Source of the DNA: Escherichia phage vB_Ec-G1
Length of the DNA: 64,000 bases
Direction: 5' to 3' (one strand)
Sequence record: PQ433349.1
The notes below the pieces were generated by a model. It did no database searches and had not been told where the DNA came from. It saw only the letters and a list, made by a program, of their open reading frames with translations. Every line of letters starts with the position of its first letter. The first letter of the stretch is position 1. Positions 3,140-39,310 of this stretch are shown piece after piece. The position numbers were made by a program, and so were the translations under genes.

Positions 3140-3412
3140 CTAACACATTGAGGAAGAAGAGATCCAAACACCTCTTGTGGTTAAACCATTTTCATCCAAC
3201 TCTACACCATAATCTTCACAAATGAAATCAATATAGTGATCTGCGGCTGGCGTTCCTGTAGGGTAATAAGTTTCTCCGTTACCGTAGTCACCTATCCAAG
3301 CTTGTTCCTGAAACTGTTCACAAAGTTCTTCGATTTCCTTACGAAACTTTCTTTGTGCTTGTTCCATCTCTTTAACTTTCTTTTTTATCAGCAGTTCGCC
3401 TTCAGACTCCAC
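3140..3412 (-). CDS. small acidic protein, W-x-SSS-C tail family member
   Basis: 90-aa ORF ending ...GVWISSSSMC; followed by UUCG-hairpin terminator. Confidence 0.5.
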   Translation of the reverse strand: MESEGELLIKKKVKEMEQAQRKFRKEIEELCEQFQEQAWIGDYGNGETYYPTGTPAADHYIDFICEDYGVELDENGLTTRGVWISSSSMC

Positions 3413-28840: not shown

Positions 28841-29956
28841 TTATTCTGCTGGTTCCCAAGTGCCTGGGATCATTTCTCGAATACGAACACCAACAGGTTT
28901 TGTTGGAATACCTTCATCTGAAAATTCTTCATACTCTATTTCAACGAACTGATTAATCAAGGTAGAAGCATTCTCTGCTTTACGATAATTGATAGTCTCA
29001 TGAGCATCTTTACGCATTAAGAATTCGACTACTTTACCATTTTCCATCTCACCTGTCAACACTCCATCACCATTTTTATCACTTTTTGAATTTGTTACTT
29101 TAACTTCAAGGGTGTGGCGAGGCTTACGTTTAATAACGTCATAAGAACGTTTATCAAATTCGTAAACTCCGTGAGCATTACGATATACTACACCTTCAGC
29201 TTTCTCAAGTAAAGCTTTTTCATAGAAAGCATCAAACTGTTCTTGGTTTTCAATATACTCTGTATGAACTACGCAAATAAGCTCGTCAAGACCATAATCT
29301 TCAACTACTGCCTTAAGAGCAGCAAGAACATCAACACGTTTTTCAAACGGTAGATCTGGAACTGGAATATCATATACGTAATAATTCAGCAAAGGTGTAT
29401 TTGCATTATGCTTCTTCCAGGCACTGTTAATTTGTTGCAGACTAAGAACACCTAACCCAGCAAACACTTCACCATCAAGAGGATGACCAACAACTTCACT
29501 AATAAAGTTTGGAATACCTTTCCAATGAGGTGGCAGGTTATACACTTCTCCAGCTTTTGATAAACACTCCCCTTTCATGTTAATCATAGAACGTAACCCG
29601 TTCAGTTTGTATTGTGCATAACCAGGGAACACAACCCTTTCAGGATAATCTTTATAATCCTGGCATTTCATTGGTGTGGAAGGAACATGGTTTTCAGCTT
29701 CTTCTTTTGTTTTATAATAGCCATTCTTTAACTGTTTTGTCCATTTGGCAAAAGCTTCAAGTTCAGCTTGTTCTTCTGGTGTTGTTTCATTGGAACGACC
29801 GATGTTTTTTGCTTCTGCTGTATAAGATTTTTCTGTGATTTTTCCACCTACCCTTCCATGAGCTACAGTAACAACTGCACCATCTGTATACACTGTCCAC
29901 TGTTTAAGTTTTCCTTTTGAATCTTTACCATACAGCGTTTGATTTGTTTGTTGCAT
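28841..29956 (-). CDS. ATP-dependent DNA ligase
   Basis: Motif I KLNGLR (KxDG-like), DGEVF, motif IV EGVVYR, motif V IKRKP; start refined to ATG 29956. Confidence 0.8.
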   Translation of the reverse strand: MQQTNQTLYGKDSKGKLKQWTVYTDGAVVTVAHGRVGGKITEKSYTAEAKNIGRSNETTPEEQAELEAFAKWTKQLKNGYYKTKEEAENHVPSTPMKCQDYKDYPERVVFPGYAQYKLNGLRSMINMKGECLSKAGEVYNLPPHWKGIPNFISEVVGHPLDGEVFAGLGVLSLQQINSAWKKHNANTPLLNYYVYDIPVPDLPFEKRVDVLAALKAVVEDYGLDELICVVHTEYIENQEQFDAFYEKALLEKAEGVVYRNAHGVYEFDKRSYDVIKRKPRHTLEVKVTNSKSDKNGDGVLTGEMENGKVVEFLMRKDAHETINYRKAENASTLINQFVEIEYEEFSDEGIPTKPVGVRIREMIPGTWEPAE

Positions 29957-30177
29957 TAGTCCTCCCATTTAAAAACTGAAATTTTCAATCTGTTACACAC
30001 TTCATCCAAATCTGCGTCGAGTAACGTTGTAGATGTTGCCAACATATAATCAATGCTTGTGAAACCTTGCCCTTTGGCATAGTCAAGCATATCTTCATAC
30101 ATATCTTCAAGATCACCGTCATCAAAAGTAGCTAGAAAATCCTCGTCCCCACTACGAACATAAAATGCAGTACTCAT
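29956..30177 (-). CDS. hypothetical acidic protein (73 aa)
   Basis: Minus ORF. Confidence 0.45.
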   Translation of the reverse strand: MSTAFYVRSGDEDFLATFDDGDLEDMYEDMLDYAKGQGFTSIDYMLATSTTLLDADLDEVCNRLKISVFKWED

Positions 30178-31274: not shown

Positions 31275-32207
31275 TTATCCTCCAAAGAAGTTTTCGATTT
31301 TTTCACGTCGCTCTTGCTGATTTAAAGCAGCCCATTGAGTCTTCGTAAAATTATTTCGAATCCATTCTAACAAAGCGTAATATTCTTCGTCAACAATTTG
31401 TTTGGCATTTTTCGGATTATCCCAAATCAGATCCCACTTTTTATCTCCACCGCGCATAAGAAACTTCTTAGTAAGATAGTGTGGTGATTTAATTTTTAAA
31501 AGTAAGTTGAACGGATAGTTTGTTTCACGAACTACAAACCCTTCGTGTTTACAATGTTTAGACATTTCAACAACATCTGAAAACTTAACCATTGGATGAA
31601 CTTCAGGACGCTTAAATTTGGTGACAGAAGCAATTCCATCAAGAGCACCTTCAGGTAACATAAAACTTGTCCCATCAGGATTTTGAATTCTGGCACCAAT
31701 TAAGTATGCACCTGGTTCTTCTTCGACAATATGCGGATCAGAAGGATCACAGATTTCAAAAAGGAAAGTTGCTTTTGCACTCTCTGTCCATTTGATGAAA
31801 TGTTCTATGTCATCACACTCTGAAACAATATGCTTCTTTGCAATACTTGCAAAATCTGATTCAAGGCTTCCTGTTGTCGATACAATAAGTTGACCTTTAT
31901 ATACACCTACAGAGGCCATAAAACCATTTACTTTACGAACCACATCTACAAGTTCATCCGCTGGTAGATCTGTGCCATTCTCAAAACGATTAAAAATCTT
32001 AGTGAAAGGCCAAATAACAACATTGTCATCAGCGTCAACAACGATTCCGCGACATTCTAGAAGACGAGAATCAATGCTCCATAAGTTATCCCAGAAAACT
32101 TTGTTCTTATACTTAAGAACAGATAGACCAGAATACTCTCCTTCTTTATATGTTTTCTTATGAACTAAACCTTTTTCAACCAAATCGTCGCAATTAAATT
32201 TAGCCAC
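31275..32207 (-). CDS. RNA ligase-like nucleotidyltransferase (Rnl2-type)
   Basis: Motif I-like KVNG, motif IV EGFVVRE, motif V LKIK; flanked by kinase and phosphoesterase. Confidence 0.55.
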   Translation of the reverse strand: MAKFNCDDLVEKGLVHKKTYKEGEYSGLSVLKYKNKVFWDNLWSIDSRLLECRGIVVDADDNVVIWPFTKIFNRFENGTDLPADELVDVVRKVNGFMASVGVYKGQLIVSTTGSLESDFASIAKKHIVSECDDIEHFIKWTESAKATFLFEICDPSDPHIVEEEPGAYLIGARIQNPDGTSFMLPEGALDGIASVTKFKRPEVHPMVKFSDVVEMSKHCKHEGFVVRETNYPFNLLLKIKSPHYLTKKFLMRGGDKKWDLIWDNPKNAKQIVDEEYYALLEWIRNNFTKTQWAALNQQERREKIENFFGG

Positions 32208-32208
32208 A

Positions 32209-32760
32209 TTACTCTCCTTTGATTATTTTGTGATGGTCTACAGTCACGATATCTCGTTTACTCATCATAGAAATTATCTCATCAAAATGCAAGATTTTTC
32301 CGTGTGCATCCCAACCCACATCTAACATTTTACCATAAGCTTCATCAGGGAAAGATCCGTGGGAATGCCCGTGTAGCATGATTGATCCACGACCTTGTTT
32401 ATTCCAGGAGGCCATAGGGTAATGGCTTAAGACGAAGAACAGCTTCTGATATTTCACTTCGTCATAATACACCACTTCTCCATACTCTGCAAGCACTTCT
32501 CGGTGTTTGCTGTAGTCATGGTTCCCAACACAGTAGGTGATATCTCCTTGGAGACGGGAAGCAATTTTACGGGTATCTTCTTCAGTTCCGAAACAGAAGT
32601 CGCCCAAATGCCACATCTTAACACCAGGAGTAGTAGCACATTTGTTCCATGCTTCGATCAAGGCTTCTGTCATGTGGTCCATATCTTCCCAGGGACGATA
32701 TTCAGGAGCAAACTCTCGAATACGTTTATGCATAAAATGCAAATCGCTTGTAATAAACAT
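32209..32760 (-). CDS. calcineurin-like metallophosphoesterase
   Basis: DLHFMH, GDFCFG, GNHD, HGHSH motifs. Confidence 0.75.
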   Translation of the reverse strand: MFITSDLHFMHKRIREFAPEYRPWEDMDHMTEALIEAWNKCATTPGVKMWHLGDFCFGTEEDTRKIASRLQGDITYCVGNHDYSKHREVLAEYGEVVYYDEVKYQKLFFVLSHYPMASWNKQGRGSIMLHGHSHGSFPDEAYGKMLDVGWDAHGKILHFDEIISMMSKRDIVTVDHHKIIKGE

Positions 32761-33494: not shown

Positions 33495-33965
33495 CTAAGC
33501 AGGCATGATTAAAAAAGAACTCTCTACTTCAAAATGCCAATCCTCCACAAGCCCTGATTCCCAATCCTTCTCTTCATGGAAAGAGCAAATCCAACGGTAC
33601 ATACCTGGCGGTGTATTCTCAACATCTTCTGGCAACCCATAATCCAAAGCTGTCTTACCGTTCTCTGTAAAACTAGGATGGAGATTAGGAGCTTTCAATA
33701 CAGAAACCCTGCCTCCAACATCTACAGCCACAATCCACTCTGTCATGTATGGGCTGTCATATTGAGGCTCATCAGAACCTAACTCAACAGCCTCTGTGCG
33801 TAAGATGATAATAGCCTGCTCTGTGATTGGAGCTTTGACAATATAACCGTGGTCCTCAAAAAGATCGATAACCTCGAACTCATCGCCGTTTTCGACACCA
33901 TAACTCTTATTCAAAGAGATAAACTTCGGGTTATCATCGTAAGCTTTAGTTACTTTAATTCTCAT
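33495..33965 (-). CDS. hypothetical protein (156 aa)
   Basis: Minus ORF. Confidence 0.5.
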   Translation of the reverse strand: MRIKVTKAYDDNPKFISLNKSYGVENGDEFEVIDLFEDHGYIVKAPITEQAIIILRTEAVELGSDEPQYDSPYMTEWIVAVDVGGRVSVLKAPNLHPSFTENGKTALDYGLPEDVENTPPGMYRWICSFHEEKDWESGLVEDWHFEVESSFLIMPA

Positions 33966-36992: not shown

Positions 36993-37238
36993 ATAACTAT
37001 TGACAAACGTATCCTTCATATGTTAGGATACGTTCATCAAGTGTGGTAACAGGGTCGTTGACTTTTGTTAAGAGGGGCTTGCACTGCGGTAGTGTTAGAG
37101 ACTACTTCTTCAGAGGTTAGCTACCAAAGAGGAAAAGGAATAGTCTCGGCTCAAGAACTTTTACGCTGAAAGTTGGGCTTGGTCTTAGAGAATGTAGCGG
37201 TTCTCTGCAATTGTCAGCGTCTCTGTTACCACATTTAT

Positions 37239-37313
37239 GGCCCTGTAGCTCAATGGGAGAGCTGTCGGCTCATAACCGATAGGTAGCTGGATCGAAACCA
37301 GCCAGGGCCACCA
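37239..37313 (+). tRNA. tRNA-Met (anticodon CAT; elongator or Ile2-type)
   Basis: Acceptor GGCCCTG/CAGGGCC, anticodon loop CTCATAA, T-arm, encoded CCA. Confidence 0.75.
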
Positions 37314-37315
37314 AC

Positions 37316-37390
37316 GTCTTTATGGTGTAATGGATAGCACAGGAGTCTTCTAAACTCTTAGTCAAGGTTCGATTCCTTGTAAAGACACCA
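37316..37390 (+). tRNA. tRNA-Arg (anticodon TCT)
   Basis: Acceptor GTCTTTA/TAAAGAC, anticodon loop CTTCTAA, T-loop TTCGATT, CCA. Confidence 0.8.
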
Positions 37391-37586
37391 GAACATTTTA
37401 ACATGAATTAGCTCAAGTGATTTGAACCCACTACTGATCATGGTGGCAGAGAATGAGGCAAGTATGTCAGACATTATAAACAAAGGCCACGGTTATATTA
37501 GAAGACATAAATGCTCGAAGAGCACCGTTCGTGGAGAACGGGGGTTGGTGGAGTCACCATTCATGGTAAAATGTTTTAAAAAACTA

Positions 37587-37615
37587 TTGACAACAAACAT
37601 TATTTTATGTTAGAT
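37587..37615 (+). promoter_or_regulatory. candidate sigma70-type promoter upstream of tRNA-Ser
   Basis: TTGACA, 17-nt spacer, TTAGAT. Confidence 0.4.
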
Positions 37616-37624
37616 TATAAATAT

Positions 37625-37715
37625 GGAAGGGCAAATCGACGTGGCGACGAAAACGGTCTTGAAAACCGCCGAGCTTGAAAGAGCCTTGGGAGTTCGACTC
37701 TCCCTCCTTCCGCCA
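37625..37715 (+). tRNA. tRNA-Ser (anticodon TGA), type II
   Basis: Acceptor GGAAGGG/TCCTTCC, anticodon loop CTTGAAA, long variable arm, CCA. Confidence 0.7.
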
Positions 37716-37740
37716 GATTGGTAGATTGGTAGATTGGTGA
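37716..37740 (+). repeat. tandem direct repeat (gattggta x3) overlapping tRNA 5' end
   Basis: gattggtagattggtagattggtg read directly. Confidence 0.6.
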
Positions 37741-37813
37741 AATGGTAGCCACAACAGTTTGCTAAACTGTAGTCGGAAACGGCGTGTAGGTTCGAGTCCT
37801 ACATCTACCGCCA
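37728..37813 (+). tRNA. tRNA-Ser (anticodon GCT), type II
   Basis: Acceptor GGTAGAT/ATCTACC, anticodon loop TTGCTAA, long variable arm, CCA. Confidence 0.7.
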
Positions 37814-37943
37814 AGTTCTTTTTAATATAGCTTACTTTAATAGAGTAAATTTTCGGCAGATGGCCCCCATCATCTTACCGATACCTCATAGTTAGTGGTG
37901 CGAACACTGGCTATTTTAAAAAGAATTTAAATATTAGTATTTA

Positions 37944-38031
37944 GGTGAGTTAATTCCGTAGGGGTAGCGGGGCAGACTGTAAATCTGTTATCATTGCGAT
38001 TCGGGTGGTTCGACTCCATCACTCACCACCA
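37944..38031 (+). tRNA. tRNA-Tyr (anticodon GTA), type II
   Basis: Acceptor GGTGAGT/ACTCACC, anticodon arm GCAGA-CTGTAAA-TCTGT as in bacterial tRNA-Tyr, discriminator A, CCA. Confidence 0.7.
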
Positions 38032-38037
38032 AATTAA

Positions 38038-38123
38038 GATGAGTTGGCTGAATGGTTTAAGCAGCGGACTGTTAATCCGTGTTCGAAAGAACAATATAGG
38101 TTCGAATCCTATACTCATCGCCA
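38038..38123 (+). tRNA. atypical tRNA with anticodon GTT (Asn) on a Tyr-like type II scaffold
   Basis: Acceptor GATGAGT/ACTCATC, anticodon loop CTGTTAA, extra GTTCGAAAGAAC hairpin before T-arm, discriminator G, CCA. Confidence 0.5.
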
Positions 38124-38130
38124 GAATTAT

Positions 38131-38207
38131 GGACTTGTAGAGTTAAGGTAAACCCCCAGTCGCCAATAGGCTTCTGGAATTGCAGGTATCGAATCCTGCC
38201 GAGTCCC
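38131..38207 (+). ncRNA. tRNA-like element without canonical anticodon arm (possible pseudo-tRNA)
   Basis: Acceptor-like GGACTTG/CGAGTCC and T-arm-like GCAGG-TATCGAAT-CCTGC, but no 5-7-5 anticodon arm with U33 could be folded. Confidence 0.3.
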
Positions 38208-38213
38208 AGCATT

Positions 38214-38288
38214 GCTCCTATAGTATAATGGCTATTACAACGGTTTTGTAATCCGTGGATCTCTGTTCGATTCAGTGTGGGAGCACCA
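38214..38288 (+). tRNA. tRNA-Thr (anticodon TGT)
   Basis: Acceptor GCTCCTA/TGGGAGC, anticodon loop TTTGTAA, T-loop TTCGATT, CCA. Confidence 0.7.
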
Positions 38289-38561
38289 ACACAACATTAA
38301 GAGCACTGTGATTGATCGTCGTATCCTGTGCACAAGGTCTGCTCGAAAGACAGTGTTCTTAGTATTGTGTTGATCACAAAAAGAGTCACCCGAAACTTGA
38401 CCGGAGTAGGGTTGGATGGGGCAAAATGAGAAGCGGCTCTCCCATCGACAGCAACGAAGAATAATATTTGACTTTGGTTTTGTATTATTTTAAGTTAGCT
38501 TACCGAACGTAGGGCTAGTCACCCAACGGGATACTCGTCACTGTCCCAATCAATAAAAGTC

Positions 38562-38591
38562 TTGACAACAAATAGTAAAATGTAGTATAGT
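38562..38591 (+). promoter_or_regulatory. sigma70-type promoter upstream of tRNA-Gly
   Basis: TTGACA, 18-nt spacer, TATAGT; tRNA starts about 12 nt downstream. Confidence 0.6.
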
Positions 38592-38602
38592 AAATATATA
38601 GG

Positions 38603-38676
38603 GCGTTCTTGGTGTAGCGGTAGCATTCCGTCCTTCCAAGTCGGCGGCACGAGTTCGATCCTCGTAGAACGCTCCA
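38603..38676 (+). tRNA. tRNA-Gly (anticodon TCC)
   Basis: Acceptor GCGTTCT/AGAACGC, anticodon loop CTTCCAA, T-arm ACGAG-TTCGATC-CTCGT, CCA. Confidence 0.7.
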
Positions 38677-38774
38677 AATTATTTAATAAAGGGTTGCCAG
38701 AAAACTTTCTCTTTTACTCATGGTTTTCTCCTTCTCTCACACTTCTTCTGGTTGCCCTTCATTAAATGATTTAT

Positions 38775-38850
38775 TGGTTTGTAGTGTAGTCCGGTAGCAC
38801 ACGACACTTTGACTGTCGTAGGTTTGGTTCAAATCCAGACAGACCAGCCA
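38775..38850 (+). tRNA. tRNA-Gln (anticodon TTG)
   Basis: U1:A72 acceptor TGGTTTG/CAGACCA, anticodon arm CGACA-CTTTGAC-TGTCG, CCA. Confidence 0.75.
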
Positions 38851-38855
38851 TATAA

Positions 38856-38932
38856 CGGAGTTTAGCTCAGTTTGGTAGAGCATACGCTTTGGGAGCGTAG
38901 GGTCGCAGGTTCGAATCCTGCAATTCCGACCA
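38856..38932 (+). tRNA. tRNA-Pro (anticodon TGG)
   Basis: C1:G72 acceptor CGGAGTT/AATTCCG, anticodon arm TACGC-TTTGGGA-GCGTA, T-arm GCAGG-TTCGAAT-CCTGC, CCA. Confidence 0.8.
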
Positions 38933-38938
38933 ATTAAA

Positions 38939-39012
38939 TGTTTCGTAGTTCAATGGTAGAACCCACGACTGATAATCGTGAGACACAAGTTCGATTCTTG
39001 TCGAAACAACCA
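38939..39012 (+). tRNA. tRNA-Ile (anticodon GAT)
   Basis: Acceptor TGTTTCG/CGAAACA, anticodon arm CACGA-CTGATAA-TCGTG, T-loop TTCGATT, CCA. Confidence 0.75.
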
Positions 39013-39014
39013 GT

Positions 39015-39085
39015 TTCCCGTTAGACTTACAGGATAAGAGTTCCACAGCTTATTGTGATGCTGGTTCGAATCCAGCACGGGATAC
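39015..39085 (+). ncRNA. degenerate tRNA-like element (intact T-arm, no canonical anticodon arm)
   Basis: T-arm GCTGG-TTCGAAT-CCAGC and acceptor pairing TTCCCGT/ACGGGAT present; no loop with U33 and purine-37 found. Confidence 0.3.
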
Positions 39086-39090
39086 ATAAT

Positions 39091-39169
39091 AGCGGGATAG
39101 AGGAGTCTGGTCGTCCTCGCCAGTTTCATATGCTGGAGATCATCGGTTCAAATCCGATTCCCGCCTCCA
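39091..39169 (+). tRNA. tRNA-Met (anticodon CAT), second copy, A1xC72 mismatch
   Basis: Anticodon arm CCAGT-TTCATAT-GCTGG, T-arm ATCGG-TTCAAAT-CCGAT, CCA; first acceptor pair unpaired. Confidence 0.6.
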
Positions 39170-39284: not shown

Positions 39285-39310
39285 AGCCTCCTTATTGGAG
39301 GCTTTTTGCT
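39285..39310 (+). terminator. rho-independent terminator after tRNA island
   Basis: AGCCTCC-ttatt-GGAGGCT followed by TTTTT. Confidence 0.7.

Follow-up and report, generated by a model that had tools for sequence, protein, structure and literature searches.

Two conserved tRNA-like RNAs without an anticodon arm in the tRNA island of Escherichia phage vB_Ec-G1

Segments of a phage transfer RNA (tRNA) island that resemble tRNAs and cannot be given an anticodon raise the question of whether they are broken genes or RNAs of another kind. In the present study, this question was asked of two segments in a 64,000-nucleotide stretch of Escherichia phage vB_Ec-G1 (sequence record PQ433349.1), hereafter the window: element E1 at 38131-38207 and element E2 at 39015-39085, both on the + strand. 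A preliminary description of this locus had noted that both segments fit exactly between neighbouring tRNAs, retain acceptor-stem pairing and a T arm, and lack a canonical 5-7-5 anticodon arm with U33. These observations hold, in that the coordinates are accurate, the gaps to the neighbours are 2-7 nt, cloverleaf-like folds can be read at these positions and both elements have 4-nt central loops. We found that E1 and E2 recur in unrelated phage families with helices kept by compensatory changes. Judged by its sequence, E1 is a homolog of RNA3 of phage T5, and E2 represents a second family for which we found no name anywhere.

Neither element is a canonical tRNA, as shown by ARAGORN and Rfam, applied to the window as well as to the segments in isolation. 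ARAGORN called 10 tRNAs in the window, with E1 and E2 not among them, and the Rfam tRNA model (RF00005) missed both when 2.7 kb were scanned at E<=10. When the same model was applied with lax filters to the isolated segments, it gave 20.3 bits for E1 and 24.6 for E2; its gathering score is 29, and the true tRNAs of the island reach 50-72 bits. The alignments ran end to end over both elements with the anticodon arm skipped as a local gap, and the D arm of E1 carried one bulged A. Thus, the relaxed covariance-model search suggested in the preliminary description left both elements below threshold, and no finder assigned a confident canonical fold or anticodon. The cloverleaf order of 7-bp acceptor, D arm and T arm is present in E1 and E2, while a 5-bp/7-nt anticodon arm with U33 and an anticodon conserved among orthologs is absent; the 4-nt loops are AAUA in E1 and CUUA in E2. 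In addition, a 3' CCA is encoded by all 12 true tRNAs of the island and by neither element. Other known RNAs did not account for the two segments. No transfer-messenger RNA (tmRNA) was reported by ARAGORN or matched in Rfam, and the sole match of the YrlA model (RF02553), 22.8 bits versus a threshold of 69, lies at 38877-38996 over tRNA-Pro/tRNA-Ile and not over E1 or E2. Neither family is present in Rfam 15, and annotation of E1 and E2 is absent from all four Stephanstirmvirinae GenBank records inspected.

By its sequence, the models and its homology with T5 rna3, E1 reads as a complete tRNA-like RNA that ends at the discriminator C38207. Its acceptor stem is formed by GGACUUG (38131-38137) and CGAGUCC (38200-38206), that is 7 bp with one G.U among them, and six of the seven pairs show compensatory changes among 14 sequences. 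The D region UAGA-GUU-AAGGUA-AAC-CC (38138-38155) is near-invariant in the alignment columns (consensus GUAGAGUUAA-N-UAAACC). It consists of a TAGA linker followed by the hairpin GTT-AAGGTA-AAC at 38142-38153, the loop of which, AAGGUA, retains the equivalents of A14, G18, G19 and A21. In place of the anticodon arm stands a central hairpin of 22 nt (38156-38177), found in the minimum free energy (MFE) fold and with covarying basal pairs; it is built of CCAG/CUGG, a 2x2 internal loop, GCC/GGC and an AAUA tetraloop (CCAG-TC-GCC-AATA-GGC-TT-CTGG). The junction AAUU and a T-like arm with an 8-nt loop, GCAGG-UAUCGAAU-CCUGC, follow at 38178-38199 (the arm itself, as DNA GCAGG-TATCGAAT-CCTGC, at 38182-38199), and all five T-stem pairs are supported by compensatory changes. 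The AUU of the junction is invariant and makes a short variable region in comparison with a canonical tRNA. No CCA is encoded, since AGC follows C38207 (CAGC), and the MFE of the element has a z-score of -3.7 against shuffles.

The relation of E1 to phage T5 was obtained from a BLAST search with the stretch from tRNA-Asn through E1 to tRNA-Thr, in which the alignment extended past the tRNA-Asn gene in T5-like phages. The T5 RefSeq record NC_005859 annotates at 33877-33949 the misc_RNA rna3 (T5s07, 'RNA3, putative tRNA-like RNA'), 73 nt ending in ACCA, beside RNA1, RNA2, RNAI, RNAIII, RNAIV, RNA2H and RNAX; what we report of the T5 RNAs is taken from GenBank annotations. The 73 nt after tRNA-Asn in the T5-like phage EASG3 and in T5 read UUCUGUG-UAGAGUUAAGUAAACC-GGUAGC-CAACCA-GCUAUC-AUU-GCUGA-YAUCGAAU-UCAGC-CACAGAU-ACCA. 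T5 RNA3 and E1 share the D region (GUAGAGUUAAGGUAAACC in the window, GUAGAGUUAAGUAAACC with one G fewer in T5), the AUUG junction, the 8-nt YAUCGAAU loop, the four-helix layout and the place immediately 3' of tRNA-Asn. They differ in that RNA3 encodes ACCA and has U.U at 1-72 and a 6-bp central stem with a 6-nt loop, whereas E1 has G1-C72 and C73, encodes no CCA and carries a longer, interrupted hairpin with the AAUA loop. The covariance model of this family, R1, gave 79.2 bits for the window (38131-38210) and 83 bits for T5, both being seeds with scores that are partly by construction. A T5 deletion mutant that is viable, st0, has lost the rna3 region, which shows that T5 can do without its copy under laboratory conditions. 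In another T5 record, AY587007 (L107), the tRNA features are annotated about 68 nt away from where the genes really lie, and therefore its 'tRNA-Asn' feature lies mostly over RNA3.

Members of the E1 family were gathered by a motif scan of IMG/VR and by BLAST, and were found in Stephanstirmvirinae, T5-like phages (Demerecviridae), Chaseviridae and two uncultured phage contigs, one of 262 kb (L072) and one unassigned (L093). They include KKE7M, alia and UAB_1 of Justusliebigvirus (by BLAST), and Erwinia phage Y2, Pantoea phage SSEM1, Faunus and phiEcoM-GJ1 of Chaseviridae. When the E1 motif was sought in 185,579 prokaryotic species, each represented by one genome, only four chance matches without stems came up; the family therefore looks phage-specific, and an origin in the host genome was rejected on the same result. 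In a MAFFT alignment of 14 distinct sequences, 95.7% of the stem cells of the four-helix structure were paired, against 26-46% with the partners slid, and 15 of 20 pairs showed compensatory changes; the observed values were reached in none of 500 shuffles. Between the window and alia, both CCA-less Stephanstirmvirinae, A3-U70 is replaced by G-C, G2-C71 by U-A and a T-stem C-G by U-A, and the whole central hairpin is exchanged in alia for UCUAGA-AUUU-UCUAGA, perfect over 6 bp. Substitutions in the stems of T5-like phages are likewise mostly compensatory or preserve wobble pairs. Across the family the central hairpin varies from 16 to about 45 nt, with the loops AAUA, AUUU (alia), UUCG (Y2) and CAACCA (T5), and the D region together with the AUUG junction is invariant. 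Three members found by BLAST (alia, UAB_1 and phiEcoM-GJ1) depart from this D region and junction by only 1-2 bases. The last of them, neither a seed nor a match to the pattern, scored 53 bits with R1, which gave 53-84 bits for family members and at most 29 for all true tRNAs. Most members outside Stephanstirmvirinae encode A/G73-CCA: the homologs of T5-like phages and Chaseviridae carry ACCA, and the window, KKE7M and alia do not.

Two of these lineages hold further RNAs of similar aspect. In Chaseviridae the lysis genes are followed by about 1 kb of non-coding DNA (230-1290 in phiEcoM-GJ1, L143; about 810-1300 in Erwinia phage Y2, L026) that is packed with CCA-ended tRNA-like units, the E1/RNA3 homolog included. 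Run on the Y2-type loci L026, L054, L064 and L076, ARAGORN found no canonical tRNA there. In alia (L109), two more uncalled structured or tRNA-like stretches lie at about 3160-3258 and 2862-2939, one with a GGGGGUUCGAUUCCUC T arm and ending GCCA.

By sequence, models and homologs, E2 is likewise a complete tRNA-like RNA, with the discriminator A39084. Its acceptor strands UUCCCGU (39015-39021) and ACGGGAU (39077-39083) make 6 bp and a U.U at 1-72, with compensatory changes in four of the seven pairs among nine sequences. The D region UAGA-CUUA-CAGGA-UAAG (39022-39038) contains the hairpin CTTA-CAGGA-TAAG at 39026-39038, and the GG of its loop is conserved in invariant alignment columns. The anticodon arm is replaced by the central hairpin CACAG-CUUA-UUGUG (39044-39057), 5 bp with a 4-nt loop, the closing G.U of which becomes A-U in L016 and L002. 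The T arm at 39060-39076, GCUGG-UUCGAAU-CCAGC, is canonical and is the perfect arm that the preliminary description had pointed out; two of its five pairs show compensatory changes and the rest are invariant. The 3' end reads ACAU without an encoded CCA, and the MFE z-score is -2.9 against shuffles.

Homologs of E2 were found in Phapecoctavirus, in the Vequintavirinae A73 and A7_1 (after tRNA-Tyr), in phiEB49, in the jumbo Enterobacter phage SonariX and in the N4-like Klebsiella phages KP8 and BaqKoxi. E2-family copies are mis-annotated as tRNA in three records; that of phiEB49 is annotated as tRNA-Val and called tRNA-Val(AAC) by ARAGORN, and that of KP8 is annotated as tRNA-Leu. ARAGORN made no call on the KP8 and SonariX copies. 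In the nine sequences of the family 96.3% of the stem cells were paired, versus 31-43% with the partners slid, and 9 of 21 pairs were compensatory. The members have in common the D region UAGRCUUA..GG..UAAG, the GAU preceding a canonical T arm, the T loop, a small-loop central hairpin and covarying stems. The hairpin itself is free in sequence and size: 5 bp with CUUA in the window, 5 bp with CUA in the metagenome contig L157, 6 bp with AUAUC in A73, 7 bp with GGCA in KP8, 5 bp with a 9-nt loop in SonariX and about 7 bp with AAC in phiEB49. In the last case, positions 32-38 and 33-37 are Watson-Crick compatible, so the supposed 7-nt loop becomes a triloop. Homologs outside Phapecoctavirus encode N73-CCA (in A73 the CCA follows directly after the stem), and the Phapecoctavirus copies read ACAU, ACCU or ACCC. 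The model R2 of this family gave 86.5 bits for the window; only family members reached at least 80 and tRNAs remained at or below 42. No homolog of E2 was found in T5, T4 or Justusliebigvirus, a metagenome scan for further lineages gave only KP8-like and Phapecoctavirus-like copies, and pattern scans of IMG/VR gave mostly chance matches. A third kind of anticodon-less tRNA-like RNA was observed in KP8 (L122) at 51-125. It is annotated 'tRNA-OTHER', ends in ACCA and forms a cloverleaf with a CACGAC/GUCGUG stem and an ACAG tetraloop, which ARAGORN reports as 'tRNA-??? anticodon (ca)'.

R1 applied to E2 and R2 applied to E1 gave 17-23 bits, the level of an ordinary tRNA, and E1 and E2 are therefore two families; a single family was rejected for this reason. 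A seed necessarily fits the model that was built from it. The hairpin in the place of the 'anticodon arm' differs in length among the members of both families. Its loop has 3-9 nt (mostly 3-6), no conserved sequence and no U33; the tetraloops UUCG, AAUA, AUUU and GGCA occur in several lineages. The reverse complements fold about equally well. However, stem cells with G.U outnumber those with A.C by 18:4 in E1 and 4:1 in E2, which favours the + (tRNA) strand over the opposite one.

Both elements lie in promoter-to-terminator tRNA operons. The window comes from a Phapecoctavirus-like E. coli myophage of Stephanstirmvirinae, and its tRNA island, on the + strand at about 37239-39169, is 98% identical to those of AV126, anhysbys and others. 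E1 is flanked by tRNA-Asn and tRNA-Thr, and E2 by tRNA-Ile and tRNA-Met. On the + strand, sigma-70-type promoter-like sites were found at 37587-37616 (TTGACA-18-TAGATT), upstream of the E1 operon, and at 38562-38591 (TTGACA-18-TATAGT, 11 of 12 matches), upstream of the E2 operon, and a further promoter-like site at 37000. An intrinsic-terminator-like hairpin followed by a T run (39285-39303) closes the island, so that E1 and E2 both fall within tRNA operons.

Several other features of the island deserve mention. A permissive Rfam scan added two genes which are probably true tRNAs: a tRNA-Tyr(GUA) at 37944-38028, missed by ARAGORN, with 39 bits to the Rfam tRNA model and called a pseudogene in the Mt1B1_P17 record, and a Ser(UGA)-type class II tRNA at 37625-37711, which ARAGORN also misses and of which the top Rfam match is tRNA-Sec at a sub-threshold 37 bits. 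The tRNA-Asn(GUU) at 38038-38123 measures 86 nt and possesses a long variable arm of class-II type, here a stem GUUC/GAAC capped by GAAA. Its full length can be aligned with the phage tRNA-Ser(GCU) architecture, with T arm and G73 in common; the type also occurs in EASG3, and the tRNA-Asn of T5 is an ordinary one of 78 nt. The anticodon is not read by SerRS, and charging of this tRNA with Asn is therefore not certain. The first tRNA-Met(CAU), at 37239-37313, has the T loop AUCGAAA, with A for U at position 54, and is the top-scoring true tRNA with the E1 model (28.6 bits). Between tRNA-Ser(GCU) and tRNA-Tyr, at 37814-37927, lies a conserved multi-hairpin RNA of about 115 nt, three hairpins enclosed by a long helix, which is shared with the Vequintavirinae phage A73 and with alia of Justusliebigvirus; it has 4 compensatory pairs among 4 sequences, a z-score of -3.4 and no Rfam match. 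The spacer between tRNA-Gly and tRNA-Gln (38677-38774) folds into a helix of about 24 bp that pairs at long range and encloses a pyrimidine-rich loop, with an MFE z-score of -5.2 for the window sequence only. Outside the island, 5-6 kb from E1 and E2 on the - strand (31275-32760), a T4 Rnl1-type RNA ligase (PF09511) adjoins a calcineurin-like phosphoesterase, and an ATP-dependent DNA-ligase-domain protein lies near this pair at 28841-29968. By sequence this pair may be an RNA/tRNA repair module; the two proteins resemble the enzymes of T4 for repairing cleaved tRNA.

Since the anticodon stem-loop is replaced by an ordinary hairpin, E1 and E2 cannot read codons, and the question becomes what a tRNA-shaped RNA of this kind would do. 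We consider it probable that they are two distinct, conserved, non-decoding tRNA mimics, excised from the tRNA precursor and acting in trans on a factor that binds tRNA. By analogy with tRNA biology, E1 and E2 would be transcribed together with the neighbouring tRNAs, RNase P would cut their 5' ends, the 3' ends would be trimmed in tRNA fashion, and stable RNAs of about 70-77 nt would accumulate. The mature RNA would end in CCA in the many homologs that encode ACCA; here, the host CCA-adding enzyme would have to supply this end, or the RNA would go without it. The product may then occupy a tRNA-binding protein through the 'upper body' of acceptor, T and D arms. In its most probable version, which we infer and put forward only tentatively, the RNA would be a decoy or competitor directed against a host tRNA-targeting defence or a tRNA-handling enzyme. 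This version is preferred because the decoding part is free to vary and the D region is invariant, because positions 1-3:70-72 and 73, on which aminoacylation identity would depend, are unconserved across lineages, because T5 does not require its copy in the laboratory, and because the RNA ligase and phosphoesterase nearby suggest pressure from tRNA-cleaving systems. No protein partner was indicated by synteny, as no ORF is consistently adjacent across the families.

Some points weigh against acceptance of trans-acting mimics as stated. The seeds of the E1 family were partly gathered with a motif pattern, and the invariance of its D region is therefore inflated. The Chaseviridae homologs of E1 have loops (GUGGA, GGUC) that are not T-loop-like, and a tRNA-like elbow is thus not a family-wide property. 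The covariation controls favour the structure, which had been deduced from the very sequences on which they were run, and the shuffle controls overstate significance since the sequences are phylogenetically related. Moreover, the lack of an encoded CCA in E1 and E2 and the U.U at 1-72 of E2 could signal relaxed constraint in this lineage. Finally, the full-text literature, with older T5 papers outside its scope, gave nothing specific on function, on phage tRNA-like RNAs or on tRNA mimicry in anti-defence, and the decoy version goes beyond what was observed.

Among the other explanations, the one that survives best is that the elements act in cis, their shape recruiting RNase P and 3' trimming to the precursor so as to divide the polycistronic transcript or to protect the ends of an adjacent tRNA or mRNA, with an excised RNA that has no function of its own. 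It agrees with the position of the elements, which are always inside tRNA operons at 2-8 nt from a tRNA and in several cases last before an ORF (T5 RNA3 before T5.068, the E2 homolog of A73 before A73_155, and those of SonariX and KP8). However, E1 and E2 of the window are flanked by real tRNAs that already supply RNase P sites, and RNase P needs neither an invariant D-region sequence nor a kept central hairpin, both of which are conserved. We therefore regard a purely cis-acting role as unlikely. Still less probable is a role as aminoacylated carriers, charged independently of an anticodon for the use of a non-ribosomal enzyme or for sequestration of EF-Tu or a synthetase. Most homologs, including those of T5, Chaseviridae, phiEB49, SonariX and KP8, do have an intact acceptor, a T arm and A/G73-CCA as such a role would require, but the pairs 1-72, 2-71 and 3-70 and N73 differ between lineages, none has G3.U70, and the window copies encode no CCA.

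The preliminary description had offered decaying pseudogenes as one explanation; on this view the elements would be old tRNA genes, now drifting, from which the anticodon loop has disappeared. The sub-threshold scores with tRNA models, the loss of the encoded CCA in this lineage only, the U.U or U.C mismatch at 1-72 of E2 and the dispensability of the T5 copy would all be expected of such remnants. Decay is nevertheless contradicted by compensatory changes in all four helices, which are kept in Stephanstirmvirinae, Demerecviridae, Chaseviridae, Vequintavirinae, Schitoviridae and others, by central hairpins that were exchanged for other perfect hairpins and not eroded, by the near-invariant D region and by the distant, motif-independent member at 53 bits. 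Recent horizontal copies without independent substitutions are contradicted as well. Thus, covariation largely refutes this explanation and leaves it very improbable. Noncanonical anticodon arms, also proposed there, describe the anatomy correctly, but as decoding tRNAs, for example frameshift or nonsense suppressors, the elements are scarcely credible: a 7-nt loop can be drawn for the phiEB49 homolog, which is called tRNA-Val(AAC) by ARAGORN and GenBank, and that of KP8 is annotated as a tRNA-Leu, yet the loops of 3-9 nt are unconserved, lack U33 and include several tetraloops such as UUCG, the phiEB49 loop collapses to a triloop, and the KP8 and SonariX copies are uncalled by ARAGORN. The third proposal of the preliminary description, tRNA-derived regulatory RNAs or decoys, is the candidate that stays under consideration.

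If the trans-acting reading were extended, the elements might belong to a broad class of phage 'anticodon-less tRNA mimics' that act against host tRNA-directed immunity or a tRNA-handling enzyme. We offer this as a speculative possibility. The class would comprise at least three families in Demerecviridae, Stephanstirmvirinae, Vequintavirinae, Chaseviridae, Schitoviridae and jumbo phages, and its targets would be tRNA nucleases, toxins that modify the acceptor end, or a tRNA-handling enzyme. It would amount to an RNA-based counter-defence distinct from the supply of replacement tRNAs. Chaseviridae would illustrate it best, with arrays of such RNAs in the regions examined and not a single canonical tRNA. 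At present, phage tRNA islands are mainly read as a counter to tRNA-cleaving defences and as a supply of codons. The present results indicate that they also hold conserved tRNA-shaped, non-decoding RNAs, noted in T5 for two decades and never explained, and that structural selection acts on two of them in several phage families. The two covariance models may be useful for annotation and for correcting phage tRNA counts, and the elements are candidates for RNA-level tRNA mimicry in the conflict between phage and host.

With regard to known systems, E1 and E2 are new members of a kind recognised since the T4/T5 era, the tRNA-like stable RNAs of phage tRNA clusters. T5 RNA1 and RNA2 ('tRNA-like stable RNA with unknown functions') and the species 1 RNA of T4 (rnaC) also lie within such clusters and have a T arm (GGUUCGAAUCC) and a closing helix as E1 and E2 do, but they are 125-144 nt long with large inserts and have no homology to E1 and E2 by sequence or model; identity with species 1 or 2 RNA of T4 was rejected. 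With canonical tRNA (RF00005), the two elements share the 7-bp acceptor, U8-A9, the D arm with GG, the T arm, the four-way junction, the operon context and the strand, and they differ from it in the 5-bp/7-nt anticodon arm, U33 and conserved anticodon of the latter and in the 8-nt T loop of E1. The tRNA-like domain of tmRNA, YrlA and the mammalian mascRNA are tRNA mimics with an acceptor/T 'upper body' which are handled by tRNA enzymes and do not read codons. None of them is homologous to E1 or E2; unlike these, tmRNA includes pseudoknots and a tag ORF, a Ro-binding helix is part of YrlA, and mascRNA is eukaryotic.

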